64,000 nt of DNA from Bacillota bacterium (GTDB lineage: Bacteria > Bacillota > DTU065): NCBI GenBank assembly GCA_028708605.1, contig JAQVYS010000001.1, positions 10,928-74,927 of the forward strand. The letters are read 5' to 3'. Of this stretch, positions 6,022 through 55,143 are shown piece after piece. The position numbers were made by a program, and so were the translations under genes. Below the pieces are notes generated by a model. That model was not told the DNA's origin. It saw only the letters and a list, made by a program, of their open reading frames with translations, and ran no database searches. Position 1 is the stretch's first letter. Each line of letters begins with the position of its first letter.

Positions 6022-9000
6022 CTACTTACTACTTTTCCCAAGCGGAATTAAATAGGTAAGATAGATCCCAGTGTCTTGTTCGCTAAGTCGCGTCTCTAGT
6101 TGAAAGTTGTCAGTCTTGAATCTGTAGAAACCTTGTAACCGGAAATTGTCTTTCAAACCTAAATGATATATCCCTTCTACTCCAAGTTGGCTCCATTTAG
6201 AGAGAGCAACATCCAATTCTGCTGCTGCAATTACTACATCGGTTTCAAGATTACCTGTAACAGCCAGTTTTATTGCTGTTTTAGAAAGTGGTAGATGGTA
6301 TTCGGTTTTTATATCATCATCGTTAACGGCAACAAATAACAAACTGTTTTTTGGAAGAACTGTCACCCCAAGTGTCTTTTTTAAATTGGCTTTCTCATTA
6401 CATAAAGAGATCTTAGTCCAAACCGACTTCGTATCATAAACTAGTTCGAGAAGGGAGAATTCAGGACTTATGTGCTCCCATTCGGCACTTACAGTTAAAG
6501 GAACCTTGTTATGAGCAAGGCTTACGGCAATCTTAGGTTTTCCCTCCCTAGGATTTCTCCAAACCCCTTCTACGTATCCGGAAAACCCTAAGATTTTATA
6601 CATCATCCTCGTCGAAAAAGTATCTATCTTCTTACCATTAAATCCTTCCCTACTTGCACTGAAAACAAGATTTTTAGGCCACTTTATTGACCCTGAATAG
6701 AAAAAGTATTCACTATTAAAATTGGTAAAGTCACCTTTTTCCATCGTGAGCTTCTGTTTTATCATTGCTCGTACCAGACGGTTTTCAAAATCAAAGGTAA
6801 ACTCGCCTCGGTTTGAGTTTTGCCCCTTGCTCACCAATATATAAAGATTGCTGTCCCAAGTGCCATCATAATCTAACTGGTAACTAAGGCTAGTTTCTTT
6901 AGCGTTAAAAAGTCGCACCTTATGGTTTGTTGTTAGAGTTCTAAGCAGAGCTGTAGCATCTTGACTGTACCTTCCCAAACTCCCCTTTAGACTCAAATTA
7001 CGGTACTTTAGATTGCCCATAAGTCCCTGATCTTCTAAATGCCGATAAAGATAAATACCATTTTCCTTTTCCTTAAATCCTATGTGCCCTCCACCAAAAA
7101 ACTTGTCGCTTTTTTGACCAGTTTCGCAAAGATAGGAGACTATTAGATAGTTATTTAACCCTAATTGATCTTCTTGCACTAAAGGCCTTTTCAGTTTAAC
7201 TGATTTTTTATCGACATAAAAATCCAGGCTATAGGTTTTAATAACCTGATTATAGCTGTTTCTTGATTCTACAAAAACCCTTACACTACCCTCTTTTGGT
7301 AGCGAGGTTAGGACAAAAGGCCCCGTTGTGCCATCAGCTAAAAACTCATCTTCTTTTTTTGTCTCAAGATAAAAGCCACCAGTGAGTTTGCACTGCAGAC
7401 CATCTTCAGGAGCAAGATCGAGCTCTGCACCTACCAAAGCTATAGAGGCGTAGGTTTCTCTAAGAGGCGAAGCAGAATAAACTGTACCTGCTCCGATTTT
7501 GAAATCGCCAACTTCATAACTAAACTGCCAGGGAGTTTTGTCTAAAATCGAGCTTTTAGTCGCCCATGTGGGGTAAGGGGTATAAGAATAGCCTTTAGGT
7601 AAAATATACGGATAGATAAATGCTAGCTTAAGCTTGTCTGTATCATAAAAACCTTTGACTCCAAAGTCTAGCTCGCCTGTAGCAGCAAGGTTTGCTTTAA
7701 ATTCCAAAAGTCCAAACTTTTTATTTCTACCACCTTGCAATTTAATGCGCTCTGAATACTTTGAAACGTTGAGAATATGCGGCTGATTACCTATCAAAAG
7801 GCCATAGCTGTCAGGCTCTAACTGTAAACTAAAGAAATTTTCGTCTGGGTCTATAAACGACCCATCTGCTAAATAGAAGCCTTCTGATGCTTCGCCAATT
7901 AAAATTCCTGGTTCGCTAAAAAGCCCTTGTGTCACTTTTAAGATGCAGGTTTTTTCTATTTCAATAGGCGTATCATCTTTTGTGTAGGCACTAACCCTTA
8001 TTTTAATTGGATAGGTGCCCTCTTTTACCGAAGGAAGCACTACAAGATCTGCATCTATCTCTATTTCTTCTTTGCTCTCTAATACCTCTTTAAAACTGCT
8101 TTTCCTGACGGTTTGCCCATTTTCAGACCACACTACACCTTCAGGCAGTGTCATTTCTATCCTAATATCCTTAATGTTTCCAACAGATAGATTACATAAA
8201 TCAAGAGAAAGCGTGCCTCGGCTACCTTCTTTTATCGTCTCCGCAGAGATAGAAGCTTCTACCTTTAAGCCATCTATTGGGTTTAAGAAGATATCTCTGT
8301 TTATTACCTCTCCTGCCAGGACATTTACTCTTTCGCTAGCCTTGTGGCCATTTTGAGTACCAGCACATATACTATAAGATCCTTCTTGTAGCTGCACAGA
8401 GAAACTTTCCCCCGCAGCCCCAGCTTTCCGAGAAATCAGCTCGCCTACGTCATTGTAAATTTCGATAAATGGCTGATCATTCTTAGCTATGTTTCTAATA
8501 TTACCTTGTAAAACTCCCCATTTTGACATATCAACTAGCGTAAAAGAGCCTTTTGTTACAACGCTTTCTTTGCCCGTGACCTCATACCTGTACTCTCCAC
8601 TTGGCCAATTAGTACCATCTGCATATTTGGTATCTACACTGATCTCTCTACAATCATTAACAGCCTTATGAAAGAGGATTTCATCACCTTTATATATCTT
8701 GATATCAGCTTCTTTAAGCTTTTCGTTTGCAAAGATAATCCTAGCAACATCTCCTGGCTTAACGTCTTTAGGATTGCAAAACGAAGTGTAAAGACTGCCA
8801 GAATTTAGCATATACATAATTTCTGTTTCATAATTCTCAGCTACAAGCTTATCATCCCAATAAGGATCAAAACGGTACTCTAATGTCAAAGACGTAGGCC
8901 CGCTTCCAAAGTAAAGACACTGACTATACTCTTGGAGCTCGAGCCAGTTGCCATTATTTACTCGTATACTAATCCTCTCTGGTGGAAGAAAAATCTCATT

Positions 9001-9201
9001 GTTTTTGTAAACCGCTTTCAGACTCTTTGCTGAAACCTCTAAGTTCCAGGCAGTATCACTTTCTATATAAAGACTTACAGATTCATGCAACTCATTTGCA
9101 AAACTATTTGGGGCACCAGTTAAGTTTACAGCAAGCAACTTATTGTTTTCAGCAAAAGCTGGGGAAGCTAAAAGTATGAAAAGTATAAGCAGCAAAATCA
9201 T
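6022..9201 (-). CDS. Large secreted multidomain protein. The N-terminal half has Ig-like or CARDB-like beta-sandwich domains. The C-terminal half has an amphipathic beta-strand pattern consistent with an outer-membrane beta-barrel. Function unknown; possibly a usher-like or porin-like component.
   Basis: 1059 aa. Signal peptide MILLLILFILLASPAFA. Its start overlaps the stop of the upstream 243-aa gene (9198-9201). The C-terminal ~500 aa show alternating hydrophobic/polar residues and a C-terminal aromatic-rich segment. Confidence 0.55.
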   Translation of the reverse strand: MILLLILFILLASPAFAENNKLLAVNLTGAPNSFANELHESVSLYIESDTAWNLEVSAKSLKAVYKNNEIFLPPERISIRVNNGNWLELQEYSQCLYFGSGPTSLTLEYRFDPYWDDKLVAENYETEIMYMLNSGSLYTSFCNPKDVKPGDVARIIFANEKLKEADIKIYKGDEILFHKAVNDCREISVDTKYADGTNWPSGEYRYEVTGKESVVTKGSFTLVDMSKWGVLQGNIRNIAKNDQPFIEIYNDVGELISRKAGAAGESFSVQLQEGSYSICAGTQNGHKASERVNVLAGEVINRDIFLNPIDGLKVEASISAETIKEGSRGTLSLDLCNLSVGNIKDIRIEMTLPEGVVWSENGQTVRKSSFKEVLESKEEIEIDADLVVLPSVKEGTYPIKIRVSAYTKDDTPIEIEKTCILKVTQGLFSEPGILIGEASEGFYLADGSFIDPDENFFSLQLEPDSYGLLIGNQPHILNVSKYSERIKLQGGRNKKFGLLEFKANLAATGELDFGVKGFYDTDKLKLAFIYPYILPKGYSYTPYPTWATKSSILDKTPWQFSYEVGDFKIGAGTVYSASPLRETYASIALVGAELDLAPEDGLQCKLTGGFYLETKKEDEFLADGTTGPFVLTSLPKEGSVRVFVESRNSYNQVIKTYSLDFYVDKKSVKLKRPLVQEDQLGLNNYLIVSYLCETGQKSDKFFGGGHIGFKEKENGIYLYRHLEDQGLMGNLKYRNLSLKGSLGRYSQDATALLRTLTTNHKVRLFNAKETSLSYQLDYDGTWDSNLYILVSKGQNSNRGEFTFDFENRLVRAMIKQKLTMEKGDFTNFNSEYFFYSGSIKWPKNLVFSASREGFNGKKIDTFSTRMMYKILGFSGYVEGVWRNPREGKPKIAVSLAHNKVPLTVSAEWEHISPEFSLLELVYDTKSVWTKISLCNEKANLKKTLGVTVLPKNSLLFVAVNDDDIKTEYHLPLSKTAIKLAVTGNLETDVVIAAAELDVALSKWSQLGVEGIYHLGLKDNFRLQGFYRFKTDNFQLETRLSEQDTGIYLTYLIPLGKSSK

Positions 9202-9929
9202 TTTTGAAGCACGTACTCTACGACATCTGTAGCCAGATCAAGGCTAATATCGTAGACTAGATCCTCGTTTCCAATCTTTACCTCTAACTGCCCCGTTGTC
9301 TTAGATAAGTAAAGTGGAATTTGAATATTAAATACCCTTGTTACACCTGGTAAGACAATGCCTTGAGTAGAGTAGCTCCTAGATATTTCTCCGTTATCTA
9401 ACATACTCACTCTAAGCTCAGTTTTAAAATGCTCGAGACCGTTATTTTTGATCTTAATCTCAAAAAACGCATTTTCATCTTTCTGGCTAAACACCAACTC
9501 TTCTAACTCTCCCTCTACAGAGCTATCCCCTTTTTTTAATATAAAAGGCACTGCGATAGCTTGGGAGAAAACTTGGGTATCTGATGCTACTTGTCTAACT
9601 ACTGCCACTTCATAAAGTGACTCTTTAACGTTCTCTCTTTTTAATTTTACGCTCGCTTTTGATGCTGCTTCAACGACTATAGTGTGGCTTTTAGGCATAA
9701 GTTGAGCATTAAGATTTGGACTTGCTGAAATAACCCCATTAGCTTTTTGAGTTAATCCTAAAATTTCAACCTCAACTACCACATCGTCTTTTCCCTGATT
9801 GTAAATGTCCACTGTCAAAGTCTCGGGGAAGTCACCAGCAATTCCCTCAAATATTGCAGGTGAAATGATCAATGCGGCAGAACACTGAAGAGAAAGAAAG
9901 ACTACCACTAAAAGCAAAGTACGCTTCAC
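9198..9929 (-). CDS. Secreted protein with two Ig-like domains and a pattern like PapD-type periplasmic chaperones. First gene of the secreted operon.
   Basis: 243 aa with a GTG start. RBS AAAGGGGA lies 8 nt upstream. Signal peptide MKRTLLLVVVFLSLQCSA. The N-domain pattern ISPAIFE...LTVDIYNQG...VVVEV, an ESLY motif and a second beta-sandwich resemble pilus chaperones by eye. Confidence 0.45.
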   Translation of the reverse strand: MKRTLLLVVVFLSLQCSAALIISPAIFEGIAGDFPETLTVDIYNQGKDDVVVEVEILGLTQKANGVISASPNLNAQLMPKSHTIVVEAASKASVKLKRENVKESLYEVAVVRQVASDTQVFSQAIAVPFILKKGDSSVEGELEELVFSQKDENAFFEIKIKNNGLEHFKTELRVSMLDNGEISRSYSTQGIVLPGVTRVFNIQIPLYLSKTTGQLEVKIGNEDLVYDISLDLATDVVEYVLQK

Positions 9930-16606: not shown

Positions 16607-17137
16607 ATGCTTTGGAGCTTATTTATCAACTGTTTTAAAGTAGGCGCCTTCACAATTGGCGGTGGTTATGCCATGCTTCCTGTAATGAAGGATGTATTTG
16701 TAAACCAAAAGAATTGGGTTTCAGAAGAAGAGTTTGTTGATATGGTATCTGTTATCCAAACAGTGCCTGGAGCTATAGCGGTAAACTCCAGTATCTACTT
16801 AGGTAGAAAAGTTGCAGGAATCCCTGGTGCAATAGCTGCCACTCTAGGCTCGGTATTGCCATCATTTTTAATAATCTTACTGATTGCGACTACTTTAACT
16901 AGTTGGTACCAAAATCCCCATGTAGCAAACTTCTTTGCAGGAGTAAGGCCTGCTGTTGTCGGTCTTATTCTAGTTTCAGGTATTAAATTAGGCAAAGATA
17001 TCCTAAGTTCGAAACTGAATATTTTACTAACGTTAATCTTCGCCTTTTTAGCCTTAGTCTTAAAGATTCATCCTGTACTCTTACTAGCTTTTGGAGCTTT
17101 AAGTGGTATGTTTCTCTATCAAAGGAGTGAAGAGTAA
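16607..17137 (+). CDS. chrA: Chromate transporter (CHR family), short-chain N-terminal half-protein.
   Basis: 176 aa. FKVGAFTIGGGYAMLP is the CHR signature. The stop overlaps the start of the second half (ATGA at 17137). Confidence 0.8.
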   Translation: MLWSLFINCFKVGAFTIGGGYAMLPVMKDVFVNQKNWVSEEEFVDMVSVIQTVPGAIAVNSSIYLGRKVAGIPGAIAATLGSVLPSFLIILLIATTLTSWYQNPHVANFFAGVRPAVVGLILVSGIKLGKDILSSKLNILLTLIFAFLALVLKIHPVLLLAFGALSGMFLYQRSEE

Positions 17138-17658
17138 TGTTACTTAAGCTTTTTCTCTCATTTCTTAAAATCGGAGCCTTTACCTTTGGTGGAGGCTATG
17201 CCATGCTTCCTCTTATTCAAAGAGACATCATCGAAATAAACCACTGGCTCACAGAAAGCGAGTTTTTAGATATCATAGCTACAGCAGAGATGACTCCAGG
17301 GCCTATTGCAATCAACTCTGCTACATTTGTTGGCTATAAACTCTCTGGTTTTTGGGGGTCTGTCGTTGCAACTTTGGCAATTGTCCTGCCTTCGTTTGTA
17401 GCTATTACCTTGCTTACTGTAATCTTAAATAAACTTAAAGACAACAAGAACGCACAAAACAGCATAAGAGGAATGCGTCCAGCTGTCACTGCTATGATTA
17501 TTACAGCCGCCTTATCACTTGCCCCTCAATCGATTGTACGTCCTGTAGACTTTATTCTTTTTGCAGGTGCCTGTATCTTATCGTGGAAAAATTGGCTAAA
17601 TCCCATCTATATTTTACTTGCCAGTGGCGTAGTTGGCTTACTTTTTGGCTTTATCTAA
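17137..17658 (+). CDS. chrA: Chromate transporter (CHR family), short-chain C-terminal half-protein.
   Basis: 173 aa. LKIGAFTFGGGYAMLP is the CHR signature. It is translationally coupled to the first half. Confidence 0.8.
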   Translation: MLLKLFLSFLKIGAFTFGGGYAMLPLIQRDIIEINHWLTESEFLDIIATAEMTPGPIAINSATFVGYKLSGFWGSVVATLAIVLPSFVAITLLTVILNKLKDNKNAQNSIRGMRPAVTAMIITAALSLAPQSIVRPVDFILFAGACILSWKNWLNPIYILLASGVVGLLFGFI

Positions 17659-19150: not shown

Positions 19151-19167
19151 TTTACTGCCCCCCCTTA

Positions 19168-19202
19168 TAAAAATGAGGCTAACTCAGAGCCTCATTTTTT
19201 TC
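19168..19202. terminator. Hairpin flanked by A and T tracts between the end of guaA and the start of fetA. Terminator for the guaA transcript (minus strand). It sits about 20 nt upstream of the fetA start.
   Basis: Stem AAATGAGGC/GCCTCATTT with a 9-nt loop. TTTTTTT follows on the plus strand and TTTTTA on the minus strand. Confidence 0.45.
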
Positions 19203-19306: not shown

Positions 19307-20629
19307 CTACTCCCACTCAATTGTGGCTGGTGGTTTAGATGAGATATCATAAACTACTCGATTTATCTCTGGAACCTCTTCCATCAATCGATTAGAGATT
19401 TTTGCTAACGTATCATGTGGGAACGGATACCAGGTAGCTGTCATGGCATCTATGCTATTGACAGCTCTAAGCCCAAGTACATACGCATAGGTTCGTTCCT
19501 TGCCTTTGATCCCTACAGTGCGAGTGTTAGATAAGACACAAAACGCTTGCCAAATCTCATTATATAAGCCATGCTTTTTAATCTCATCTATATATATTGA
19601 ATCTGCATGTCTTAAAATATCTAGTTTCTCTTTGGTTACCTCGCCCATTATTCTAATAGCAAGTCCTGGACCAGGAAAAGGATGCCTTAAAACCATCTGT
19701 TCTGGCATACCAAGCTCTACACCCACTGTACGTACCTCATCTTTAAAAAGCTCCCGCAGAGGTTCTACAAGCGTAAAATCCATATCCTGTGGTAAGCCAC
19801 CAACATTATGATGACTCTTGATTGTCGCAGTTGTATCTGTACCACTTTCAATTACATCGGGATAAATTGTACCCTGTGCTAAGAACTTAGCATCGCCAAT
19901 CTTTCGTGCTTCTTCCTCAAACACGCGAATAAACTCTGTACCAATAATCTTACGCTTCTTTTCTGGCTCTGTAACACCTTTTAGTAATCCTAAAAATCTC
20001 TCAGACGCATCGACGTGGATTAAATTTAGGTTGAACCGCTTCTTGTAGGTTTCAACTACTTCCTCTGCTTCGCCTAAGCGCATAAAACCATGATCTACAA
20101 AAATACAAGTCAACTGATCGGCTACTGCTTTGTGGACAAGAAGTGCTGTTACAACAGAATCCACGCCACCACTAAGGCCACAAATGATTTTATTGTCTCC
20201 TACCTGCTCTTTAATATCACTTATAGCTTTCTGTGCAAAAGAAGACATGTTCCAAGTACCCTTTAGCTTACAAGTCCTAAACAGAAAATCCTTAACCTTC
20301 GTTATACCTTCAGGTATCTCTACTTTTTCAGACGCGAACTCTGTACCACTGCCTATTCCTAACACCGGAATATTGAAATTTCTAATTTCTCTTAAGACTT
20401 TAAGACCGTCTTCCTGGTGGGTAGTTGGGTTAGTAGCCAGAACAATACCTCTTGGCTTTTTCTCGTTTATCGCAGAGATTGCTTTAGTATATGGCAATAC
20501 CTCACAGTACACGTGCTCTTTCCTAATTAGACGAGTTATTTTTTGGCTGGAATGAGACCCGAAATCAATAATTAAAATCAATTCGTCATGAAGACTATTG
20601 TTCATGCAAAATGCTGCAAAAATCCACAA
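19307..20629 (-). CDS. guaA: GMP synthase-like protein. The ATP-pyrophosphatase and dimerisation domains are intact, but the N-terminal glutamine amidotransferase domain is truncated and degenerate.
   Basis: 440 aa. It has the PP-loop SGGVDS and a canonical GuaA C-terminus (PFPGPGLAIR..., ATWYPF..). The N-terminal ~130 aa align to GATase class I, but the catalytic Cys reads GIGSG, the SGGP motif reads ATNP, and the His/Glu region is deleted. Confidence 0.8.
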   Translation of the reverse strand: MWIFAAFCMNNSLHDELILIIDFGSHSSQKITRLIRKEHVYCEVLPYTKAISAINEKKPRGIVLATNPTTHQEDGLKVLREIRNFNIPVLGIGSGTEFASEKVEIPEGITKVKDFLFRTCKLKGTWNMSSFAQKAISDIKEQVGDNKIICGLSGGVDSVVTALLVHKAVADQLTCIFVDHGFMRLGEAEEVVETYKKRFNLNLIHVDASERFLGLLKGVTEPEKKRKIIGTEFIRVFEEEARKIGDAKFLAQGTIYPDVIESGTDTTATIKSHHNVGGLPQDMDFTLVEPLRELFKDEVRTVGVELGMPEQMVLRHPFPGPGLAIRIMGEVTKEKLDILRHADSIYIDEIKKHGLYNEIWQAFCVLSNTRTVGIKGKERTYAYVLGLRAVNSIDAMTATWYPFPHDTLAKISNRLMEEVPEINRVVYDISSKPPATIEWE

Positions 20630-20696
20630 AAGACTGCTTGGAACATTGCAGCCACCCTCCTTTTTCTATGCAAAATGCCACACAAGCTTTATCTTT

Positions 20697-21248
20697 CTAG
20701 GTCGTATAAATCTCAGGTTTTAGAACTCCGATATAAGGTAAATTTCTATATCTTTCAGCGTAATCAAGACCGTAGCCGACTACGAATTCATCAGGAATTA
20801 CAAAACCATTGTATTTTACGTCAATACCTTCTACTCTTCTGGCCGGTTTGTCTAATAATGTGCAAATTTCGATGCTATTTGGTTTTCTAGACTGTAGATT
20901 TTCAACGATGTACTTTAGCGTTAGTCCACTATCTACAATATCTTCAACTATAAGTACGTCTCTACCAGCAATTGTTGACTCTAAATCCTTAATAATACGT
21001 ACAACTCCAGAGCTCTTTGTCGCTAAACCATAACTAGATACTGCCATAAAATCGATTTCCATCTGCAGATCTATCTCACGGACAAGGTCAGCTAGGAAAA
21101 TTGTTGCTCCTCGCAAAATCCCAATTACAATTAACTGCTTGTCCTGATAATCCTTAGTTAATTGTTTACCTAATTCTTGTACTCTATTTTCAAGTTGCTC
21201 TTGGGAAATAATGATCTTTTCCAAATCAGGGCCCATAACTCTGCTCAA
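20697..21248 (-). CDS. hpt: Hypoxanthine phosphoribosyltransferase.
   Basis: 183 aa. PRPP-binding motif [14 protein letters not shown] and the Hpt family pattern. Confidence 0.9.
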
Positions 21249-21529: not shown

Positions 21530-23662
21530 ATGGCTGTATACAATTTACGTCCAGATTTTGATTGGGATTCAGAAGGCATCAAGGAAGTTCGAAAACGTGA
21601 TGGACGCATCGTTGCTTTTGATGCTACCAAAATCACTAAAGCAATTGCCAAGGCTGCTGAACAAGACGGACTATCACGTCCACAGGAGATAGCTCTGCTT
21701 ATGACCTCTGAAGTTATTCGAGTCATAGGCACAGATTTCCCACAATTTACTACACCACACGTTGAAAACATTCAGGATGTTGTAATCAAAGTATTAAAGG
21801 AAAATGATCTTGGAAGCCTTGCAGATACTTACCTTACCTATCGCGAAAATCGCACCAAATCTCGTGCTGAAGCATCAAACCTTCTTAAACAGATTGGTGC
21901 TATTATTAAAGAATCACCTATCGGTATCGAAGGTAATGCTAATGTAGGTCATAATTTCTCTGCAAAACTATTGCAGATTGCAAGTGCCGCTTCCAAATGG
22001 TACTACGAAAACGAACTACTACCAACAGACATCGCTAAAGCTCATAAAGAGGGATACATTCATATCCATGATCTTGATAGCTATGGTAAAACATTAAATT
22101 GCATGCAAATACCTCTTGATAAGCTTCTTAAAAACGGCTTTTCAACTGGCTATGGCTTTATTAGGCCTCCAAAAAGAATAGGGTCTGCAGCAGCTTTAAT
22201 GTGTATTATCATGCAGTCTTCGCAAAATGATATGTATGGAGGACAATCCATTCCTTGGATGGACAAGTCTTTAGCTAAGTTCGTAGATCAAAGATACGAT
22301 GATTTGCTCGGAAGTGACTTGACCGATGAAGAGACTCAATTAAAGGCCAGCATTACAAGAGAAGTCTATCAGGCAATGGAGGCTACTATTCACAACTTAA
22401 ACACCATGCATTCTAGAGCAGGATCTCAAGTGCCGTTTTCATCGGTTAATCTAGGTACAGACCTTACACCTAGGGGTAGGCTAATTACTGAACAGTTCCT
22501 CAAGGCATTCTACGCTGGTCTTGGCCGGGGCGAAACACCAATTTTCCCCAATGTAGTTTTTAGACTAAAAACTGGTGTAAACTTTAACCCAGAAGATCCC
22601 AACTATGATCTCTACCAACTAGCACTAAAGGTTGCAGGTCGTAGAATGAATCCGACTTTCTCATTCATGGATTCGAGCATGAATAAGCCTTTTGGAGACA
22701 AAACAAGCTACATGGGTTGCCGTAGCCGTTTAATAGACAATATCTACGGCGAGTCAACATCCGAAGCTAGAGGAAGTATCGCTCCTGTATCGATTAATCT
22801 GCCTAAACTAGCTTTAGAGTCAGAAGGTAGTACAGAAACCTTCTTTGAAAAACTAGATCAAACCTTGGCTCTGTGCAAAAAGCAGTTACTCCACCGGGTA
22901 GAGGTTTTAAAGCAACGCACTGTTAGCGACATACCTTTTGTTATGGGAGAACACCTGTACATGGGGTCTGATGATCTATCTCCAAATCAGAGTATTTGGG
23001 AAGCCATGAAGCACGGATCCATTAACATTGGCTTTATTGGTCTTGCTGAAGCACTCATTCTTCTTACAGGAAAGCACCATGGAGAAAGTGACATCTCTCA
23101 AGAACTTGGTCTGGCAATCGTAAGTCATATCAGAGCTTATTGTGATGATATTACAGACAAAGAAAAGTTAAATTGTACTTGCTATGCAACCCCTGCAGAG
23201 GGATTAAGTGGCAGATTTATTGCACTAGACAAAAAGGAATTCGGTACTATTCCACAGATCACAGACAAAGACTACTACACCAACTCTTTTCATATTCCAG
23301 TTAACTATCAAATCTCTGCATTTAATAAGATTGCCCTTGAAGGTCCATATCATAAATACTGTAACGCAGGTCACATCTCCTACGTCGAAGTAGAATCTCC
23401 ACTTGAAAACAACCCTAAGGCTCTCGAAAGTCTGCACAGAAAAATGGCAGCTTCTGATATGGGTTATGCTGGAGTGAACTTTCCTATCGACGAATGTGTC
23501 GATTGTGCTTATAGTGGTATAGTTGATAATGAATGCCCAGTTTGTGGTTCTACTAGAATCAACCGCGTACGCAGAGTAACAGGCTATTTGAGCTATCTGC
23601 ATCGCTTTACAACAGGCAAAAAAGCAGAATACCAAAATAGACAACCTCATAAAAAAGCTTAA
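21530..23662 (+). CDS. nrdD: Anaerobic ribonucleoside-triphosphate reductase (class III).
   Basis: 710 aa. N-terminal ATP-cone, C-terminal Zn ribbon CPVCGS and the glycyl-radical motif RVTGYL. RBS GGGGTGA is upstream. Confidence 0.9.
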   Translation: MAVYNLRPDFDWDSEGIKEVRKRDGRIVAFDATKITKAIAKAAEQDGLSRPQEIALLMTSEVIRVIGTDFPQFTTPHVENIQDVVIKVLKENDLGSLADTYLTYRENRTKSRAEASNLLKQIGAIIKESPIGIEGNANVGHNFSAKLLQIASAASKWYYENELLPTDIAKAHKEGYIHIHDLDSYGKTLNCMQIPLDKLLKNGFSTGYGFIRPPKRIGSAAALMCIIMQSSQNDMYGGQSIPWMDKSLAKFVDQRYDDLLGSDLTDEETQLKASITREVYQAMEATIHNLNTMHSRAGSQVPFSSVNLGTDLTPRGRLITEQFLKAFYAGLGRGETPIFPNVVFRLKTGVNFNPEDPNYDLYQLALKVAGRRMNPTFSFMDSSMNKPFGDKTSYMGCRSRLIDNIYGESTSEARGSIAPVSINLPKLALESEGSTETFFEKLDQTLALCKKQLLHRVEVLKQRTVSDIPFVMGEHLYMGSDDLSPNQSIWEAMKHGSINIGFIGLAEALILLTGKHHGESDISQELGLAIVSHIRAYCDDITDKEKLNCTCYATPAEGLSGRFIALDKKEFGTIPQITDKDYYTNSFHIPVNYQISAFNKIALEGPYHKYCNAGHISYVEVESPLENNPKALESLHRKMAASDMGYAGVNFPIDECVDCAYSGIVDNECPVCGSTRINRVRRVTGYLSYLHRFTTGKKAEYQNRQPHKKA

Positions 23663-26667: not shown

Positions 26668-27213
26668 ATGAGTGCCCGCGCACCATTATCAAAATATGTA
26701 ATAAGAATGGCTGGAATCGTACCTGAAAGTTATGTAGACGGACCAGGTGTGCGTTATACTATCTTTGTCCAAGGTTGTCCGCATCAATGTTCTGGTTGTC
26801 ATAACTCTGATACCTGGGACTTCTTTGGTGGTACTTCATTTACAGCTGATGAACTTCTAGAAAAAATTGCTTTTGCTAAGAAAGAAAACCCCTATCTTCA
26901 AGGTGTGACTATTACTGGTGGTGAACCTTTTTGCCAAGCATATCCATTAGCTCACCTAGCAAAAGGGATAAAAGAATTGGACTGTGACCTAGTAGTTTAC
27001 ACAGGCTACATTCTAGAAAACCTAGCTGAGGTTCCAAGTGCTATTGAGTTTCTAGAACATATTGACGTGTTAATTGACGGTCCTTTTGTACAAGAAAAGA
27101 AAGTCTTAACACTACCCTACAGAGGATCAACTAATCAGCGTATTTTAGACAAAAAAGCTATTGAAAAGTTTTTAAGAGACTACAAACTTAAAGCTTTGTC
27201 TTCGGCTTTATAA
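26668..27213 (+). CDS. nrdG: Anaerobic ribonucleotide reductase activating protein (radical SAM).
   Basis: 181 aa. CPHQCSGCHN is the CxxxCxxC radical-SAM cluster motif, and the protein is about the size of NrdG. RBS AAAGAGGTG is upstream. Confidence 0.85.
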   Translation: MSARAPLSKYVIRMAGIVPESYVDGPGVRYTIFVQGCPHQCSGCHNSDTWDFFGGTSFTADELLEKIAFAKKENPYLQGVTITGGEPFCQAYPLAHLAKGIKELDCDLVVYTGYILENLAEVPSAIEFLEHIDVLIDGPFVQEKKVLTLPYRGSTNQRILDKKAIEKFLRDYKLKALSSAL

Positions 27214-28361: not shown

Positions 28362-31300
28362 TTACGCTCTCGAAGTTTTTTCTTGGTTTCTATCATCGAT
28401 TGGGAGAAGTTTTTTAGCTACAACCTTAATCTCTTCTTTTTCTCCAAAGTTTGAAAACTGCAATACACCCTTAATAAAGTAGACCTCTCCAGTCTCTGGC
28501 CTAAACTTGCTATAGATATCACTAAATACAGTTATGCTCACAGAGCCTAAAAAATCTTCAACATCAATAAAAGCCATAGTTTGCCCTTTACGGTCAGAGT
28601 AGAGATTTACCTTAGTTATTATTCCCGCTAGGACAACCTCAGAGCCGTCCGATCTTTCTGGTAGATCTTTTATACTATCTAGGCGATACTTTTTAAGAAC
28701 ATCCGCATATGCATCAAGAGGATGCCCTGACAAATAAAACCCTAGTGCTTCTTTTTCATAGTCTAGGTACTCCTTTAAACCTTTTTTAGGCATAATTGGA
28801 AGTTCTAACGAAACGTCCTCTGGCTCAAAAAGAGAAAGTTGGTTAGCATTATCTTTCTTTGCTCGATCAAGTGCCAACTTTGATACTTCAAGCAAGCTCT
28901 CGCGAGGACCAAATTCATCTAATGCACCTGCTTTAATAAGATTTTCCAAAGCTCTACTATCAAGAGAGTCTTTGTTTTTTGTACATAGATCAAGGATATC
29001 CTGATAGCTTTCGGTTTGACGGTTTTCAGCTATTTGACTTGCAAGACCAATACCAACTCCTTTGGTCACCCCGAGACCTAAGCGAATGTTGCCTTCTAAA
29101 GCGGTGTGGTATGCCTCGCTATGATTGATATCTATATTTAAGACATTTATCATCAATTGCTTTTTAATATACTCCAAATATGCTGTTGTCTTGTCTGAAT
29201 TATCGATAACACTGTTTAAAAGAGCTGTCATAAACTCTACTGGATAGTGTGCCTTAAGATAGGCGGTTTGATAGGCGATTAGGGCATAAGCTGCGCTGTG
29301 TGCCTTATTAAAGCAGTAGCTTCCAAAGCCTACAAAGACCTCATCCCAAAGCTGAGTAGCTTCTTCTTCAGTAATCAAGCCCTTCTCTTTTGCTCCACTA
29401 ATAAACATCTCGCGATGCTTGTCCATTAGATCCTTCTTTTTCTTAGCAACAGCTTTACGCAGCTCATCACTTTCTCCTCTAGTATAGCCCGCTAAAATAA
29501 TCGACGCACTCATCAGCTGCTCTTGATAAACCCATACCCCATAAGTTGGTTTAAGAATTGGTATTAGTTTTTCATGAAGGTAATGTGCTTCTTTTTCACC
29601 ATGCTTGCAGGCAATAAAATCATCTACCATACCACTTTCAAGAGGCCCCGGGCGATATAATGCAATTAGAGCTGTTATATCCTCAAATTCTGTTGGTCTT
29701 ATCCGCCTACATAGATTTCTCATACCATCTGACTCTAGTTGAAATACTCCAAGAGTATCTCCTTCCTGAAGAAGCTGGTATGTTGCTGGATCATCTAACT
29801 TCAGTGAAGCTAAATCTAGTTTCCTAGGTAGCGTCTTAATTGTGTCATCAATGATGGTTAAGTTTCTTAGGCCTAAGAAGTCCATCTTTAATAATCCACG
29901 CTCTTCTGTGGCGTCCATATCGGTCTGGACAGCATAGGTATCCTCAGCAGCCCGATACATAGGTACATATTCATAAATCGGTTTTGGTGTAATGACTATA
30001 CCTGCTGCGTGTAGCGACGCATGCCTTGCATTACCTTCGAGCCCTTTTGCGTAGACTACAACGCGATTAATCTCTGGGTCTTGGTTGCATAGCTGTCCTA
30101 GTTCTCCCTCTAAAGCCTTATCAATAGTCATTCCTAAGGTGGTAGGGATTGACTTTGCAATTTTATCTCCTAAACTATATGGAAGCCCTAAAACACGGAC
30201 AATGTCTCTTACAACACCTCTAGCCCCAAAGGTTCCAAATGTAACGATCTGTCCGACATGATCCTCTCCGTATTTGTCTTTAACATAATTAATAACGTCC
30301 TGTCTTCTTCTTTGGCAGATATCAACGTCAATATCTGGCATCCCAATACGATCTGGGTTAAGAAAACGCTCAAAAAGCAAGTCGTGGACTAAAGGATCAA
30401 TCTCAGTAATACCTAAAAGATAAGCAACTATTGAACCTGCTGCAGATCCTCTCCCAGGTCCGACTGGAATATCATTTTGTTTAGCCCAATTAATAAAGTC
30501 ACTAACAATTAAAAAATACGATTCATAGCCCATCTGTTCTATAACCTTCATCTCATATTGAGTACGTTCTAGAACATCTGGACTAGGGGTTTTACCGTAT
30601 CTAAAATCTAGTCCAAGTGCTACTTGGCGCTTAAAATAATCGTGTAAATTGCCCCCGCTTATAGGAAACTCTGGCAAATGTAACTCTCCGAATTTCATTT
30701 CAAATTCGCATTTTTCAGCAATAACAAGCGTATTCTCTATTGCCTCTGGTACATCCGCAAATAACAAACGCATCTGCTCAGCAGTTTTAAAATAATGCTC
30801 ATTTGAGAATGCTTCTTCTGCTCTTTCAGAGTATTCATCTAGTGTTATACCCCATTGCAGACACAACAAGACACGATGTAGTTCCGCTTGGTTCTGTTCC
30901 GTATAGTGTGAATCGTTGGTAGCAACTAGAGGAATACCAGTAGCTTTGCTAATCTCAATCAATTCTCTATTTACAACCAATTGCTCTGCCATGCCATGAT
31001 TCTGGAGTTCAAGATAGTAGTTCCCTCGCCCAAAAAGTTCATCTCTCCTTAAAGCCTCTGCTTTAGCTTCATCTCTAAAACCTGCTAGTATGAGCTGAGA
31101 TTCGGCGCCTCCAAGGCAAGCAGATTGAAAGATTATCCCTTCGTGAAACTCTTCAAGATCCTCCCAGTATATTTGAGGTCTGTAGTAAAATTGCCTCTGA
31201 CCTAAGCTTACAAGCCGGATTAGGTTCTGGTAACCCTGATCGTTTTTTGCCAGTGCAATTAAATGATATGGTTTTGGGGTCTTCTCGCCTTTTTTACCTC

Positions 31301-31508
31301 TAGACAAGTAAAGCTCACACCCACTAATAATTTTTACACCATATTTCTTGCCAAGCTTATGAGCTTTAGTTTCGCGGAACATATTGCCGTGGTCAGTTAT
31401 GGCAACAGCTGGTTGCCCATCTTCTGCTGCTTTTTTTATTATTTCTTCAACGGTACTAAGTCCATCTTGGAGACTACCGTCTGTATGAACATGTGTATGT
31501 ACAAACAT
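28362..31508 (-). CDS. dnaE: DNA polymerase III alpha subunit (DnaE type, N-terminal PHP domain).
   Basis: PHP motif HTHVHTDGSLQDG, the polymerase core and a C-terminal OB fold. The likely start is the internal ATG at 31508 (MFVHTHVH). The ORF track extends to 31586 without an RBS. Confidence 0.9.
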   Translation of the reverse strand: MFVHTHVHTDGSLQDGLSTVEEIIKKAAEDGQPAVAITDHGNMFRETKAHKLGKKYGVKIISGCELYLSRGKKGEKTPKPYHLIALAKNDQGYQNLIRLVSLGQRQFYYRPQIYWEDLEEFHEGIIFQSACLGGAESQLILAGFRDEAKAEALRRDELFGRGNYYLELQNHGMAEQLVVNRELIEISKATGIPLVATNDSHYTEQNQAELHRVLLCLQWGITLDEYSERAEEAFSNEHYFKTAEQMRLLFADVPEAIENTLVIAEKCEFEMKFGELHLPEFPISGGNLHDYFKRQVALGLDFRYGKTPSPDVLERTQYEMKVIEQMGYESYFLIVSDFINWAKQNDIPVGPGRGSAAGSIVAYLLGITEIDPLVHDLLFERFLNPDRIGMPDIDVDICQRRRQDVINYVKDKYGEDHVGQIVTFGTFGARGVVRDIVRVLGLPYSLGDKIAKSIPTTLGMTIDKALEGELGQLCNQDPEINRVVVYAKGLEGNARHASLHAAGIVITPKPIYEYVPMYRAAEDTYAVQTDMDATEERGLLKMDFLGLRNLTIIDDTIKTLPRKLDLASLKLDDPATYQLLQEGDTLGVFQLESDGMRNLCRRIRPTEFEDITALIALYRPGPLESGMVDDFIACKHGEKEAHYLHEKLIPILKPTYGVWVYQEQLMSASIILAGYTRGESDELRKAVAKKKKDLMDKHREMFISGAKEKGLITEEEATQLWDEVFVGFGSYCFNKAHSAAYALIAYQTAYLKAHYPVEFMTALLNSVIDNSDKTTAYLEYIKKQLMINVLNIDINHSEAYHTALEGNIRLGLGVTKGVGIGLASQIAENRQTESYQDILDLCTKNKDSLDSRALENLIKAGALDEFGPRESLLEVSKLALDRAKKDNANQLSLFEPEDVSLELPIMPKKGLKEYLDYEKEALGFYLSGHPLDAYADVLKKYRLDSIKDLPERSDGSEVVLAGIITKVNLYSDRKGQTMAFIDVEDFLGSVSITVFSDIYSKFRPETGEVYFIKGVLQFSNFGEKEEIKVVAKKLLPIDDRNQEKTSRA

Positions 31509-31725
31509 CCCAATCCCGCCTTTTTGAGCTTCCTTATACTTTCTCACGTAAATTTCTACTTGGACTATAAAGCCATAAAAACTCAAATCCCATATCTACA
31601 AATAAATTATTCACTCTCTTAAAATCACCTTTAAGATCTTCAGAAAAAGAGCTTAACTTGTTAAGAACTATTTCTCCCTTTACTCTCTAATAAACCTCTT
31701 TATTTCTCTATATTTTAATCGCTAG

Positions 31726-33520: not shown

Positions 33521-35236
33521 TTAGTCAATGAATTCCTCTTTTAAAGCATATGTACCAACTTTTACTCTCACAAAGTCCAGAGAAGAACCTAAAGCTACCT
33601 GAATCGACTTCGGTGAGTAATGAGCTTTGTCAGGCAACATTTCGTTAATTAGCTCAGTTATTTCTCTGTAATGTGCTGGGCGGTTTAGTTTCTTTATAAC
33701 AGCTTTTGCATAATCTACTCTTCTTTTTTTGATAAGTAGTGATTTTCTTGTAAGTTCCACTGTTTGGTCGGGTAGTAAGGCTAGCTTTTTAGAATTACTA
33801 ATCGAAGACCTAATTAAATCCTCATCCTTATTATAGGTTGCTACAATCATCTTAGCTAAAACATCTAAAGAAAGTGGCCCACTCTTTATTATAATAGATT
33901 CAGCCTCATATGCGATGAGATCGACCTGCTCTTTATCTATCTTATTTAGTGCCCAAAGACCATCTGATAACTCTTTGCAACCTGAAAGACTTAGAAACAG
34001 AGGAATGACGCTTGATGGGTTAACATTAGTAGCTTTGTGTTTTTTTAGTATCTGGGATTTAATAAGACTTATATTTGCTATCCCACCTGCATCTTCAAGA
34101 GTTTTTCTAAATACAACAAATAAAGATTCTGCCGCCTTTATATTTGATGCTGCAAACAGTTTTTTACGAGCCTTCTTTTCTATCTGCCTAACTCTTTCTC
34201 TAGATATATTATAATCTTCTGCGATAGCTTCGAGTGTCTCTGGAGATAAAGCAAAAATTGCTAAACGTCTATTTAAAATGTCCTTTTGCCTGCTAGATAA
34301 AGTCTCCTGTATAAGATGGATGTATTCGTCTAGTGTTTGGAATTCTATTAGCTCCGAATTAGGACTACTATAATATCTATTCAGTTCATATTGAATGCTT
34401 TCAAGAGATTTCGCACCAATATTTGCGATGTTAAGCAAGTCAGATTCTTTTAGATTAGCAATTTCCTCTACATAGCGAAAACCACTCTTTTTTAAAGCAT
34501 TATACGCTCTGTTTGTAAAATCAAGGCTTTCAATTGGGGTCTTGTACTCGTCGATACCACCTACTTGGTACATCTCTTTACAACTAGAAATTTTCTTGCC
34601 AGTTACAAGACTGTAACGTCTTAATAAATTCTCAAGTGAACTAGAACCTATTCCTCGAAGGTTAGAGAGCTCTTCTATACTCATATGTTCTAGTTGGCTA
34701 ACATAAAAAAGCTTGTTTCTTCTCAGGGCATTAAGAGTTCTGTTGTCTAAGCCTAAGTTAGACAACACTAAATCGCCTTGATCTTTTTGAAGATAGTAAA
34801 CTTTAATAGCCTTTTGAATATGCTTATAAGTATTTTCGCCTATGCCTTTGATCTGTAGTAATGTCTTTTTATCTAAGGAAACTAGCTCTCCTAAAGTAGA
34901 AATACCTGCATTAGTCAAGCTTTGCAATGCCCTACGGTTTAATGCTAGAACTAAAAGATCGAGATTATTATCTTCTTCGACTGATGATATGTTGTCAGTT
35001 TTCTCTTTGTGAACCTCGAGATTTAGATTAGCGATCTTTCTAGTTATCTCTGTTGCAGTAACTTGTCCAAGTTTTGGGATCTCTAACAGCTCTTCAAATT
35101 TGATGCTAGATATTTTCCCATATGTGTCAAGACCAGCATCCAAAAGAGCTCTTACTGCACGGGTCGAAAAACCTAATTCAACTACTGAAGTAGTTGAGTT
35201 AGGAGTGCCAATAGGTGAAGTTTTTGCAAGAACCAT
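33521..35236 (-). CDS. Chimeric transcription-related protein. It has four tandem RNA polymerase alpha-subunit C-terminal-domain-like (alpha-CTD, HhH) repeats, a sigma-70 region 4 HTH domain, an unknown middle region and a C-terminal HARE-HTH domain (RNAP delta-subunit-like).
   Basis: 571 aa. Repeats at aa 17-70, 91-147, 156-210 and 235-288 each carry the alpha-CTD pattern (for example ELGFSTRAVRALLDAGLDTYGKIS...ELLEIPKLGQ). Residues 305-360 read LSSRQKDILNRRLA...ETLEAIAEDYNISRERVRQIEKKARKKL, which is sigma region 4. Residues 506-567 read PAHYREITELI...FVRVKVGTYALKE, a HARE-HTH signature. Confidence 0.6.
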   Translation of the reverse strand: MVLAKTSPIGTPNSTTSVVELGFSTRAVRALLDAGLDTYGKISSIKFEELLEIPKLGQVTATEITRKIANLNLEVHKEKTDNISSVEEDNNLDLLVLALNRRALQSLTNAGISTLGELVSLDKKTLLQIKGIGENTYKHIQKAIKVYYLQKDQGDLVLSNLGLDNRTLNALRRNKLFYVSQLEHMSIEELSNLRGIGSSSLENLLRRYSLVTGKKISSCKEMYQVGGIDEYKTPIESLDFTNRAYNALKKSGFRYVEEIANLKESDLLNIANIGAKSLESIQYELNRYYSSPNSELIEFQTLDEYIHLIQETLSSRQKDILNRRLAIFALSPETLEAIAEDYNISRERVRQIEKKARKKLFAASNIKAAESLFVVFRKTLEDAGGIANISLIKSQILKKHKATNVNPSSVIPLFLSLSGCKELSDGLWALNKIDKEQVDLIAYEAESIIIKSGPLSLDVLAKMIVATYNKDEDLIRSSISNSKKLALLPDQTVELTRKSLLIKKRRVDYAKAVIKKLNRPAHYREITELINEMLPDKAHYSPKSIQVALGSSLDFVRVKVGTYALKEEFID

Positions 35237-47778: not shown

Positions 47779-48732
47779 TTACATTTCGTGTATTTTTTTG
47801 AGTAGTACTTTTTTAATTGTATCAGAAACAAAACTTGCTTCAAGTGAATTTATTAACAAATTTTTTCTCGTAGTAGCTTTGTCTAAAAGATCGTTAGCAA
47901 TTTCATATTCGCCCTGTAACGTGATCTGAGAGGTTTGAGGGTCATCGTCATTAACTGTAACCTTAAGACCCATATTGACCATTTGCTTTATAGGGTGTTC
48001 TTTAATACTTGCAACAGCCCCAGTGTGTATATTACTTGTGGGGCAAACTTCAAAGACTATACCTCTTTCTTTTGCAATCTCTACTACCTCTTTGTCTTCT
48101 ATTACCCTGATGCCATGACCTATACGGCTAGCGTTTAGTTCCAGTATCGCCTCTTTGACGTTTCCTGGTTCACCAGCTTCCCCCGCATGTGCAGTGATAC
48201 CAAGGCCGGCCTCTTTTGCTATTTCAAAAGATCTCTTATGTGGCAAAGCCTTGAAGTTTGCTTCGTCTCCAGCTATGTCAAAGCCAACAACACCTAGATC
48301 CTTATATTTACTGGCAAGCTTTGCAAGCCTAATTGATACTGCAGGATCTTCATGCCTGAGGGTAGAGATGATTGCCCGAGTAACAACTCCAAAGTTCCGT
48401 TCACCTTCGTTAAAGCCCTCTAATACAGCTTCTACAGTATCTTCTAGTTGCATATCCCCTGATGTATGCAAAGTAGGTCCGAAGCGTACTTCTAAATAAA
48501 GACAGTTGTTTTGACTTGCGCTTTCAACGATCTCATAGGCAACTCTTTTAAGATTTTGGCGTCTTTGCGTTAAAGGATAGCCACAGGCAATCTTGTCAAG
48601 GAACTCCTTTAGGGAGGTACAGTTTTTGTTTACAGTAAGATCCGCTTTGATATCGTTTCCCATTAACTCGCTAAAAGTTTCAGGTCTAACGCTTCCTTCT
48701 AAATGAGTGTGCAAACTAACTGTATAATCCAT
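47779..48732 (-). CDS. add: Adenosine deaminase.
   Basis: 317 aa. SLHTHLEGS (the HxHxxG zinc motif) and HAGE....GHG family motifs. RBS AAGGAG is upstream. Confidence 0.85.
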   Translation of the reverse strand: MDYTVSLHTHLEGSVRPETFSELMGNDIKADLTVNKNCTSLKEFLDKIACGYPLTQRRQNLKRVAYEIVESASQNNCLYLEVRFGPTLHTSGDMQLEDTVEAVLEGFNEGERNFGVVTRAIISTLRHEDPAVSIRLAKLASKYKDLGVVGFDIAGDEANFKALPHKRSFEIAKEAGLGITAHAGEAGEPGNVKEAILELNASRIGHGIRVIEDKEVVEIAKERGIVFEVCPTSNIHTGAVASIKEHPIKQMVNMGLKVTVNDDDPQTSQITLQGEYEIANDLLDKATTRKNLLINSLEASFVSDTIKKVLLKKIHEM

Positions 48733-48787
48733 AGTTTTTTCTCCTTAAATAAGTGATTGACATAGCGCTTATGTCATAATAAATATC

Positions 48788-49420
48788 TTACTTTGGGGTG
48801 CCTTCCTGCAAAACTGCTTTTTCGTCTAAAACACTAATCCGAAACTCACAGTATTGATCGCCGTTTGCACAACATTTTTCTTCCACCACTTCTACCTTTT
48901 TACCGAGCTTTGCCTCAAAAGCACCTGCTGCTGTACCTGATTCGTAGACACAGATCTTTAGGCCAATGTTTGGAAGACCATAACAATCTGCGCATTCGTA
49001 GGTCCGGTAGATGGCCTCATTGTCTGTAACTTTTACAATCTCCTGCCGGCCATACTTGTGCTCTGGGGCTATACGAACATTGCTTTCAAGCAGTTCTTTT
49101 AAATTTGTGCCAGTAAGACTTGGGGCTATATATGCTGCACCAATTACCTTACCAATTTGATAACTAAGAGGTAGAAGCTCTGGAAAAAGCATAAAGGTAA
49201 AGGTTTGTCTATCTCTCATATAGAGAATCTGCATTTCGTTGCCGAATGTAGGACGGATCTGCCGGCCTTCAGCTAAAGCCTTATAGTGATCGTTTATGGC
49301 TGCAAAAAGTTCTTTTGCTTTAGAGGCTTCTTCCACAAGATCACGATACGCCCCAGAGGTCAAGCCTGCTGATGCCTTGATTAATGTGTGGAGTCTTGTG
49401 TAATCAGACATAAGTATCAC
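48788..49420 (-). CDS. V4R-domain protein (predicted small-molecule-binding), embedded in the nucleoside uptake operon.
   Basis: 210 aa. The C-terminal CVYESGTAAGAFEAKLGKK...CCANGDQYCEFRI carries the V4R conserved Cys pattern. Its start overlaps the upstream permease gene by 17 nt. Confidence 0.6.
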   Translation of the reverse strand: MILMSDYTRLHTLIKASAGLTSGAYRDLVEEASKAKELFAAINDHYKALAEGRQIRPTFGNEMQILYMRDRQTFTFMLFPELLPLSYQIGKVIGAAYIAPSLTGTNLKELLESNVRIAPEHKYGRQEIVKVTDNEAIYRTYECADCYGLPNIGLKICVYESGTAAGAFEAKLGKKVEVVEEKCCANGDQYCEFRISVLDEKAVLQEGTPK

Positions 49421-52892: not shown

Positions 52893-52959
52893 TTTTCCAG
52901 CCTCCTAATCCAAGAAGAATCGCTGGCAAAAAACCAGCGATTCTTTAGCCCCTAGTCTA

Positions 52960-53991: not shown

Positions 53992-54003
53992 GTTGTGTTC
54001 CTC

Positions 54004-54861: not shown

Positions 54862-54875
54862 AAAAATAACCTCCT

Positions 54876-54929
54876 CAATAAAATAAAGCCCGGGTGGCCA
54901 GGTTACGGCGAAACCTGACCATCCGGGCT
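54876..54929 (-). terminator. Intrinsic terminator forming the expression platform of the purine riboswitch. Its U-tract abuts the RBS of the PNP gene.
   Basis: Minus-strand RNA AGCCCGGAUGGUCAGGUUUCGCCGUAACCUGGCCACCCGGGCU, then UUUAUUUUAUU, then GAGGAGG. Confidence 0.6.
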
Positions 54930-55104: not shown

Positions 55105-55143
55105 AATATTCGTTTATTAATTCAATATCAATCTGACATCTTA

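Follow-up and report, generated by a model that had tools for sequence, protein, structure and literature searches.

The question raised by this locus is how a guanosine monophosphate (GMP) synthase that has lost a large part of its glutamine amidotransferase (GATase) domain would obtain the nitrogen for its reaction, and whether it still works at all. The gene, here called guaA', lies in a 64,000-nucleotide stretch (the window, meaning the whole of the DNA analysed) of contig JAQVYS010000001.1 from a Bacillota bacterium of the DTU065 lineage (assembly GCA_028708605.1). It is a single unbroken open reading frame (ORF) on the minus strand, 19307..20629, with a TTG at 20629 as the mechanical start. 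Translation is likely to begin at the first ATG (20605), which gives a protein of 432 amino acid residues with the N-terminus MNNSLHDELILIIDFGS; the identical start was picked by independent gene callers for the near-identical protein P0001. A first-pass annotation of the window had described a conserved ATP-pyrophosphatase (ATPPase) half joined to a dead GATase remnant and had offered three options: an ammonia-dependent aminase of xanthosine monophosphate (XMP), an enzyme supplied by a separate GATase subunit, or a decaying gene. The first option is the best supported of the three by the sequence data presented here. We consider it fairly probable that guaA' is the orthologous guaA of the organism, which would have lost its glutaminase and would work as an ammonia-dependent XMP aminase carrying a docking stub.

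The synthetase half of the protein is retained in full. The Pfam family GMP_synt_C (PF00958) is matched completely, at profile positions 1-92 of 92 (E = 3.4e-41), together with PP-loop families, and TIGR00884 guaA_Cterm reaches 494 bits, above its cut-off of 339 (NCBIfam). The PP-loop SGGxDS is found as S145GGVDS150. The lid IKSHHN, the alpha11 motif DVIES (DxxES) and the alpha12 motif KDEVR (KD(D/E)V(K/R)), as these are defined in bioRxiv 10.1101/808618, are also present, as are the dimerisation domain and the C-terminal XMP-binding signature KPPxTxE(F/W)x, which reads KPPATIEWE. The columns of the PP-loop, DxxES, KDEVR, IKSHHN, RHPFPGPGL and KPPATIEWE are invariant across 66 sequences. The ATPPase half is 77-78% identical to that of intact orthologues, and its ratio of nonsynonymous to synonymous substitution rates (dN/dS) is about 0.03-0.09 in related pairs with usable dS. 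The full conservation of this half claimed by the first-pass annotation is upheld. As judged from its sequence, GuaA' is a member of the GMP synthase ATPPase family in every feature tested, and it is predicted to keep all that is known to be needed for the adenylation of XMP and the amination of adenyl-XMP.

The N-terminal part of the protein is reduced to a stub. The GATase family PF00117 is matched at profile positions 1-89 of 190 only (Pfam), which is short of the complete fold, and TIGR00888 guaA_Nterm reaches 60 bits, below its cut-off of 172 (NCBIfam). In a phmmer alignment with E. coli GuaA (1gpm), residues 2-89 of GuaA' correspond to E. coli residues 2-90 and residues 87-432 to E. coli residues 177-525; about 80-86 residues are therefore absent, in frame. 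The deletion runs from the nucleophile elbow to the former His/Glu strand. The nucleophile Cys86 of E. coli corresponds to Gly85 in the sequence GIGSG, and the oxyanion motif SGGP, in the general form (S/T)GGP, has become ATNP (residues 57-60), both as first annotated. The segment with the catalytic His and Glu had been described as missing, and this proved incorrect: the strand GVQFHPE persists as G87-T-E-F-A91-S-E93, fused straight to the nucleophile elbow, with Ala91 in place of His181 and with Glu183 kept as Glu93. The loss of the class I Cys-His-Glu triad is thus confirmed by alignment for Cys and His and refuted for Glu, and Glu93 is its sole remnant. The deleted segment, as taken from the closest intact orthologue, is not encoded in any frame of the 64-kb window (best tblastn E = 4), and there is therefore no frameshifted remnant of it. 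Because the Cys is replaced by Gly and the His by Ala, the oxyanion motif is gone and the fold lacks about 80 residues, GuaA' is predicted to be unable to hydrolyse glutamine by the class I mechanism, in agreement with the earlier claim.

The same loss is found, in several degrees, among the relatives of the protein. The alignment comprised the 134 nearest relatives, 119 of them database proteins and 15 translated from genome loci, and a neighbour-joining tree was calculated on 313 columns of the ATPPase half. The triad is broken in 22 of the 134, which fall into three clades of uncultured Bacillota, with metagenome-assembled genomes (MAGs) of DTU065 and Limnochordia among them. The dead forms span the range from point-mutated full-length proteins to stubs of about 420 residues. 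In clade A, to which the window protein belongs, dead and intact forms are interleaved in the tree. The intact forms are P0005/L008 (MAG UBA4881) and P0004; Cys is replaced by Gly in P0002, P0006 and L009 (GIGYG, with HPE kept), Cys by Gly and His by Tyr in P0007, and His by Ser in P0008. The deleted forms of this clade are the pair of the window protein and P0003, an orthologue of 428 residues from the MAG 'Clostridia bacterium DTU065' (L007) that is 69% identical and has its deletion in the equivalent region. Clade B contains dead forms of 419-501 residues from the MAGs AS08sgBPME_46, AS21ysBPME_219, AS23ysBPME_266 and AS04akNAM_60, one 'uncultured Clostridia' genome and one Limnochordia MAG, together with the metagenome proteins P0022, P0032, P0047, P0097 and P0101. 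Clade C consists of P0072 and P0104, full-length proteins with point-mutated triads. The deletions vary in length. Each is confined to the region bounded by the nucleophile elbow and the last GATase helix, with strands b1-b4 and that helix always left in place. Taken at face value, the tree is read by us as at least five independent inactivations. A homology search with the N-terminal 147 residues alone (28 candidates) gave 3 irrelevant matches.

The oxyanion motif shows a related change. In P0004 (L002, 10001-11542), the closest orthologue with an intact triad, SGGP already reads SASP, and the Cys-less sisters P0002, P0006 and L009 share this SASP. The change from SGGP to SASP may represent an earlier step of the same decay.

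As a baseline, 70 further genome loci of the same scan were compared, which belong to Alphaproteobacteria, Actinomycetota, Bacteroidota and others. Cys and HxE are intact in 69 of them; two of the 69 carry AICYG, and the remaining locus, L020, was not parsed. L020 (CAWEJM010000010.1, from an uncultured Actinomycetes MAG) is an anomaly in its own right: its product of 418 residues has no recognisable PP-loop despite a tblastn match of 1517 nucleotides, and a frameshift, masked bases or a problem of the ORF-extraction script are possible causes.

The substitution rates indicate that the stub is not free to vary along its whole length. For the window protein and P0003, dS is saturated, with the synthetase half still 78% identical; the relative dN was used for this pair, dN/dS being unusable, and dN/dS was taken from closer pairs within the clade. 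The dN values are 0.15 for the ATPPase half, 0.35 for residues 1-55 of the stub and 0.86 for residues 56-111, so that the second half of the stub appears nearly free to change while the first half does not. In the comparison of P0006 with L009, both Cys-less and full-length and separated by a dS of about 0.3, dN/dS is 0.18 for the dead domain and 0.054 for the ATPPase half. Selection on the dead domain would thus be relaxed about three-fold and yet be far from neutral; the domain is evidently still useful.

It is important to compare the sequence of helix alpha1 in intact and dead proteins. The canonical form of its motif is (K/R)(K/R)xRE. In this motif residues 1 and 4 make conserved interdomain salt bridges to the ATPPase alpha12 motif KD(D/E)V(K/R), residue 2 makes contact with the loop bearing the triad His and Glu, and the alpha1 mutant K24L has its NH4Cl-dependent kcat halved (bioRxiv 10.1101/808618). 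Arg at position 1 and Arg at position 4 are each found in all 111 intact proteins and in all 22 dead ones. Arg at position 2 is present in 111/111 intact proteins and in 6/22 dead ones, and Glu at position 5 in 107/111 and 8/22, respectively. Helix alpha1 is retained by all stubs. In the window protein the motif reads R25-L-I-R28-K, with positions 1 and 4 kept and positions 2 and 5 lost. This pattern suggests that docking to the synthetase is preserved and that communication with the glutaminase site is abandoned.

The AlphaFold2 model of GuaA' has a predicted local distance difference test score (pLDDT) of 84 and a predicted template-modelling score (pTM) of 0.83, with pLDDT of about 66-89 per block of ten residues in the stub region. 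Residues 10-84 form a four-stranded alpha/beta half-domain (b1-a1-b2-a2-b3-a3-b4) in this model, and residues 98-111 form the last GATase helix. The Foldseek comparison with bacterial GMP synthase structures gave query-normalised TM-scores (TMq) of 0.80-0.88. The model is suggestive of a stub that sits where the GATase domain lies in the solved GMP synthase structures.

From these data we infer ammonia-dependent activity in vivo, a docking role for the stub and an ecological cause of the loss. In the proposed mechanism, the intact ATPPase domain would adenylate XMP, and free cellular NH3, in place of NH3 channelled from glutamine, would attack adenyl-XMP to give GMP. The stub of 111 residues would no longer be an enzyme. 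It would be kept since helix alpha1 docks by two Arg salt bridges onto alpha12 of the ATPPase domain, next to the catalytic helices and the lid loop, where the stub could act as a structural cap over alpha11, alpha12 and the lid. The other half of the fold, which formed the glutamine site, would no longer be needed. Such chemistry has precedents. All GMP synthases and archaeal ATPPase subunits that have been studied use external NH4+, with reported Km values of 26-174 mM (PMC10526850). In the C89A mutant of PfGMPS the glutamine-dependent activity is lost and the NH4Cl-dependent activity is kept, with a lower Km for NH4Cl (PMC9312489).

The loss would be tolerated, and would recur, in lineages from ammonia-rich anaerobic digesters, in which ammonia would not be limiting. 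DTU065 was first binned from biogas reactors (PMC4736482) and is the sister class of Limnochordia in Firmicutes_G (PMC11456536). A MAG of the DTU065 genus was obtained from thermophilic cultures whose inoculum came from a digester with 3.2 g/L NH4+-N (PMC13422317), a concentration that we calculate as about 230 mM, and the contig of P0097 is labelled 'biogas fermenter metagenome'. Free ammonia at this level would be similar to or higher than the Km of ordinary GMP synthases, and selection for the glutaminase would then be weak.

Several points weigh against this explanation. The saturation of dS for the nearest truncated relative leaves the constraint on the stub to be judged from relative dN and from motif conservation. 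Full-length GuaA sequences were present in the input alignment of the structure model, and the placement of the stub is possibly biased by them. The tree has no bootstrap, and the exact number of independent losses is uncertain. The link to ammonia comes from the habitats of relatives and not from that of the window MAG itself; a literature search by SRA accession numbers for habitat metadata gave no match. Furthermore, the intact orthologues P0004 and P0005/L008 are found in the same clade, so high ammonia alone need not force the loss.

Among other explanations, guaA' could be a redundant or neofunctionalised copy that serves only xanthine salvage with hpt, or has some other role, while an intact guaA is present elsewhere in the genome. 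The data on guaA copies cover the 64-kb window only, and guaA' is paired with the salvage gene hpt and not with guaB. This explanation is nevertheless unlikely, as guaA' stands at the syntenic position of the intact guaA of sister lineages, which marks it as an orthologue and not an extra copy. The order of genes in the window is HepT-synthase-I (14753), chromate transporters (16607-17658), UPF0014 with an ABC ATPase, guaA', hpt, nrdD, Wzz, a ParA-like kinase, nrdG, a cation-efflux gene and PolIII-alpha (28362-31586). The block PolIII-alpha/cation efflux/nrdG/ParA-Wzz/hpt-guaA/chromate transporters/HepT-I/NusG_II is common to the loci of the intact P0004 (513 residues; L002) and of the full-length, Cys-less P0006 (513 residues; L088), with both of which the window is syntenic. 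Synteny with the truncated P0003 (L001) extends over a shorter stretch, on a contig of 6.9 kb, and the hpt-guaA pair itself is conserved in L001, L002, L005, L087 and L088. The shared block therefore places the truncated gene at the ancestral guaA locus and not as an inserted paralogue. The ATPPase half is as strongly conserved as in ordinary GuaA, which also argues against a redundant copy. The genome-contig scan covered species other than that of the window, the best match to the window protein being 75% over the synthetase half and 74% over the full length, and gave no second locus in any MAG with a degenerate guaA among the loci listed; this argument is weak, since the scan was pattern-based with at most 80 loci listed.

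A split enzyme is also improbable on present data. In this case glutamine would be hydrolysed by a class I amidotransferase with a gene of its own, bound to the ATPPase domain as GuaAa is in archaea, and the dependence on glutamine would be kept. The archaeal GMP synthase does work as a split enzyme, and at least six loci of clade B (L003, L005, L010, L011, L013 and L016) encode a stand-alone class I amidotransferase of 236-242 residues some 6-7 kb upstream of guaA'. However, that protein is PuuD-like, with its best match, at E = 1e-37 to 1e-40, to gamma-glutamyl-GABA hydrolase and 1e-9 to 1e-10 to GuaAa, all below the cut-off (NCBIfam), and it is separated from guaA' by tsaEBD and groESL; it was rejected as a candidate GuaAa. 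A hidden Markov model of the GuaA GATase domain detected no amidotransferase ORF besides guaA in the 64-kb window or the loci L001, L002, L007-L009, L087 and L088. The separate GuaAa-like subunit of the first-pass annotation finds no support in the window or in 14 related loci. In the structure model, moreover, the retained stub would fill the alpha12 position that a docking partner needs, and the alpha1 position that communicates with the glutaminase site has lost its conservation. The clade B neighbourhood is of separate interest: its order RHH/PemK - GATase - tsaE/B/D - groESL - guaA' includes the PuuD-like gene (L003, 786-1514; L005, 3695-4405) as a constant neighbour of a guaA' that lacks a glutaminase.

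That guaA' is a decaying pseudogene in a purine-salvaging organism, with the N-terminal damage as the first visible step, is very unlikely. Salvage genes do occur in the window, namely hpt and a guanine-riboswitch operon for nucleoside uptake, a phosphorylase and adenosine deaminase. Both had been taken as adjacent to guaA'; this is correct for hpt, while the operon is real but lies 34 kb away. The missing Shine-Dalgarno sequence described below could also be seen as a sign of decay. For the synthetase half, however, decay is contradicted by the ORF, which is intact across lineages and assemblies with no frameshift or stop, by the invariant synthetase motifs, and by the low dN/dS and high identity to P0003 of DTU065 given above. 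In addition, truncated forms occur on hundreds of contigs, as for the members of the P0003 cluster (P0128, for example, on 327). Finally, although the sequence comes from a MAG, an apparent deletion made by a collapsed or chimeric contig or another sequencing error, a refutation foreseen in the first-pass annotation, can practically be dismissed, because the ORF is unbroken, the deletion is in frame and is shared in region with P0003, and the seven members of the 90%-identity cluster, from independent NCBI MAG, JGI, ENA and Logan assemblies and including the identical P0139 (MDD4692801.1, 'MAG: Firmicutes bacterium'), all have the same architecture of 432 residues.

With the ammonia-dependent XMP aminase as the preferred reading, GuaA' can be compared with known systems. 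It shares with the two-domain bacterial GuaA (EC 6.3.5.2; E. coli 1GPM, A. baumannii 7SBC) the ATPPase/dimerisation half, all catalytic motifs of that half and the domain order, and its first 90 or so GATase residues and last GATase helix are homologous, as the TMq values of the model also reflect. It differs in the lack of the triad and the oxyanion motif and in the deletion within the GATase fold. The archaeal GuaAb (M. jannaschii 6JP9, P. horikoshii 2DPL) resembles GuaA' as an ATPPase unit without a glutaminase of its own, with sequence matches of E = 6e-102 and 4e-100 over residues 121/122-432, and the archaeal subunit on its own can form GMP from NH4+ in vitro (PMC10526850). However, the archaeal subunit has no N-terminal stub and has a dedicated partner, GuaAa, whereas GuaA' keeps a fused remnant of 111 residues, and no GuaAa partner gene was found in the 64-kb window or in the related loci of the same clade. 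GuaA' is thus outside the two-subunit type, as far as its gene and neighbourhood indicate. The PfGMPS mutants C89A and C89A/C113A, in which the catalytic Cys is removed, are the engineered counterpart of the natural P0002, P0006 and L009; the former are substitutions in a full-length domain and are neither natural, evolutionarily maintained nor truncated. By analogy, GuaA' should function like archaeal GuaAb assayed alone or like PfGMPS C89A.

Two enzymes of different families follow a similar course. Carbamoyl-phosphate synthetase I has a Cys-less pseudo-glutaminase domain, a dead domain that is kept for structural or allosteric reasons, and uses free ammonia; the evolutionary logic is alike. 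In NH3-dependent NadE the synthetase is likewise kept, the glutaminase is absent or lost and free ammonia is used, and the division of NadE into NH3- and glutamine-dependent forms is a subject of PMC3376133. Reviews of GMP synthase describe two architectures, two-domain and two-subunit, both of them glutamine-dependent in vivo (PMC10526850, PMC9312489). Full-text literature searches gave no description of a natural ammonia-dependent, GATase-dead or truncated GuaA.

The positions of guaA', of its parts and of the adjacent elements are collected in Table 1.

Table 1. Features of guaA' and of its surroundings in the window.
Feature	Coordinates	Strand	Basis
guaA' coding sequence (432 residues and stop), GMP synthetase with vestigial GATase stub	19307..20605	(-)	ORF, domain searches, phmmer
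GATase-derived stub, residues 1-111, corresponding to E. coli 1-90 fused to 177-201	20273..20605	(-)	Pfam, phmmer, AlphaFold2, Foldseek
Helix alpha1 docking motif R25-L-I-R28-K (putative)	20519..20533	(-)	Alignment; residue roles from bioRxiv 10.1101/808618
Degenerate oxyanion motif A57-T-N-P60 replacing SGGP	20426..20437	(-)	Alignment
Deletion junction G83-I-G85-S-G-T-E-F-A91-S-E93	20327..20359	(-)	phmmer, alignment, tblastn
ATP-pyrophosphatase and dimerisation domains, residues 118-432	19310..20254	(-)	Pfam, NCBIfam, phmmer, motif alignment
PP-loop S145GGVDS	20156-20173	(-)	Motif alignment
Lid I262KSHHN	19805-19822	(-)	Motif alignment
C-terminal K424PPATIEWE	19310-19336	(-)	Motif alignment
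Leader region of guaA'	20602..20660	(-)	Read from sequence
hpt, hypoxanthine/guanine phosphoribosyltransferase	20697..21248	(-)	Pfam Pribosyltran, E = 1.5e-29
Terminator-like hairpin TGAGGCT-7 nt-AGCCTCA then TTTTTAT, 3' of guaA'	19167..19194	(-)	Read from sequence

The leader of guaA' has an unusual arrangement. A Shine-Dalgarno sequence, GGAGGG at 20655-20660, is located 55 nucleotides 5' of the guaA' ATG, and the leader sequence contains none that belongs to this ATG. An upstream ORF of 14 codons (MFQAVFCGFLQHFA) begins with an ATG at 20646, 8 nucleotides past GGAGGG. Its stop codon, TGA, and the guaA' start codon share bases in the sequence ATGA, an arrangement suggestive of translational coupling. 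In the intact orthologue L002 the hpt-guaA gap is only 25 nucleotides and the Shine-Dalgarno sequence is directly ahead of the start, while the truncated sister L001 shares the long leader, in which a tiny upstream ORF terminates in GTGA. The gene hpt lies directly upstream of guaA' on the same strand, with a gap of 91 nucleotides in which the consensus scan reported no terminator-like hairpin, and the two genes are probably co-transcribed. Because of this arrangement, GuaA' may also act in xanthine/hypoxanthine salvage. The promoter and terminator consensus scan performed no better than on shuffled sequence and did not report the hairpin 3' of guaA', and an Rfam E-value scan of the hpt-guaA leader/promoter region gave no match.

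Some other features of the window can be mentioned. Between nrdD (21530-23662, +) and nrdG, the gene of its activase (26668-27213, +), lie genes for a Wzz/GNVR chain-length determinant and for a ParA-like tyrosine kinase, an arrangement also conserved in L002 and L088. A guanine-type purine riboswitch (C74; 55022-55123, 84 bits) heads the salvage operon at 47779-55123 (-), which contains a PNP-like phosphorylase, a Bmp/PnrA nucleoside-binding protein, an ABC ATPase, two permeases, a V4R-domain protein and adenosine deaminase. At 33521-35236 (-) a protein of 571 residues combines three repeats of the RNA-polymerase alpha C-terminal domain with helix-hairpin-helix motifs and sigma-70 region 4, an unusual architecture. 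The ORF of 1059 residues at 6022-9201 (-) and the overlapping ORF of 243 residues at 9198-9929 (-) have no Pfam match at E <= 1e-5.

The proposed function, if correct, has consequences for annotation. The NCBIfam model NF000848, 'glutamine-hydrolyzing GMP synthase', is matched by the window protein with 609 bits against a cut-off of 400, on the ATPPase half alone, and the named NCBI entries for the truncated and dead proteins carry this label. This would be a systematic error, and metabolic models built on it would wrongly charge glutamine for the synthesis of GMP. For the biology of these organisms, the proposal would mean that free ammonia can naturally supply the final step in the synthesis of guanine nucleotides. 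The natural deletion series would show which part of the GATase domain is structurally needed, namely helix alpha1 with its two salt-bridging arginines, and the decay of a specific enzyme would be tied to the ammonia-rich niche of abundant uncultured digester bacteria. It is possible, although we put this forward only as a tentative suggestion, that uncultured Bacillota of ammonia-rich digesters (DTU065 and Limnochordia MAGs) have repeatedly and independently converted their GMP synthase to a third class of the enzyme, obligately ammonia-dependent, with a minimal stub that docks by alpha1, and perhaps kinetically adapted, for example by a lower Km for NH3. If this were so, the decay series would delimit the smallest portion of the GATase domain still required by the synthetase, and the status of the triad could be used as a genomic marker of life at high ammonia.

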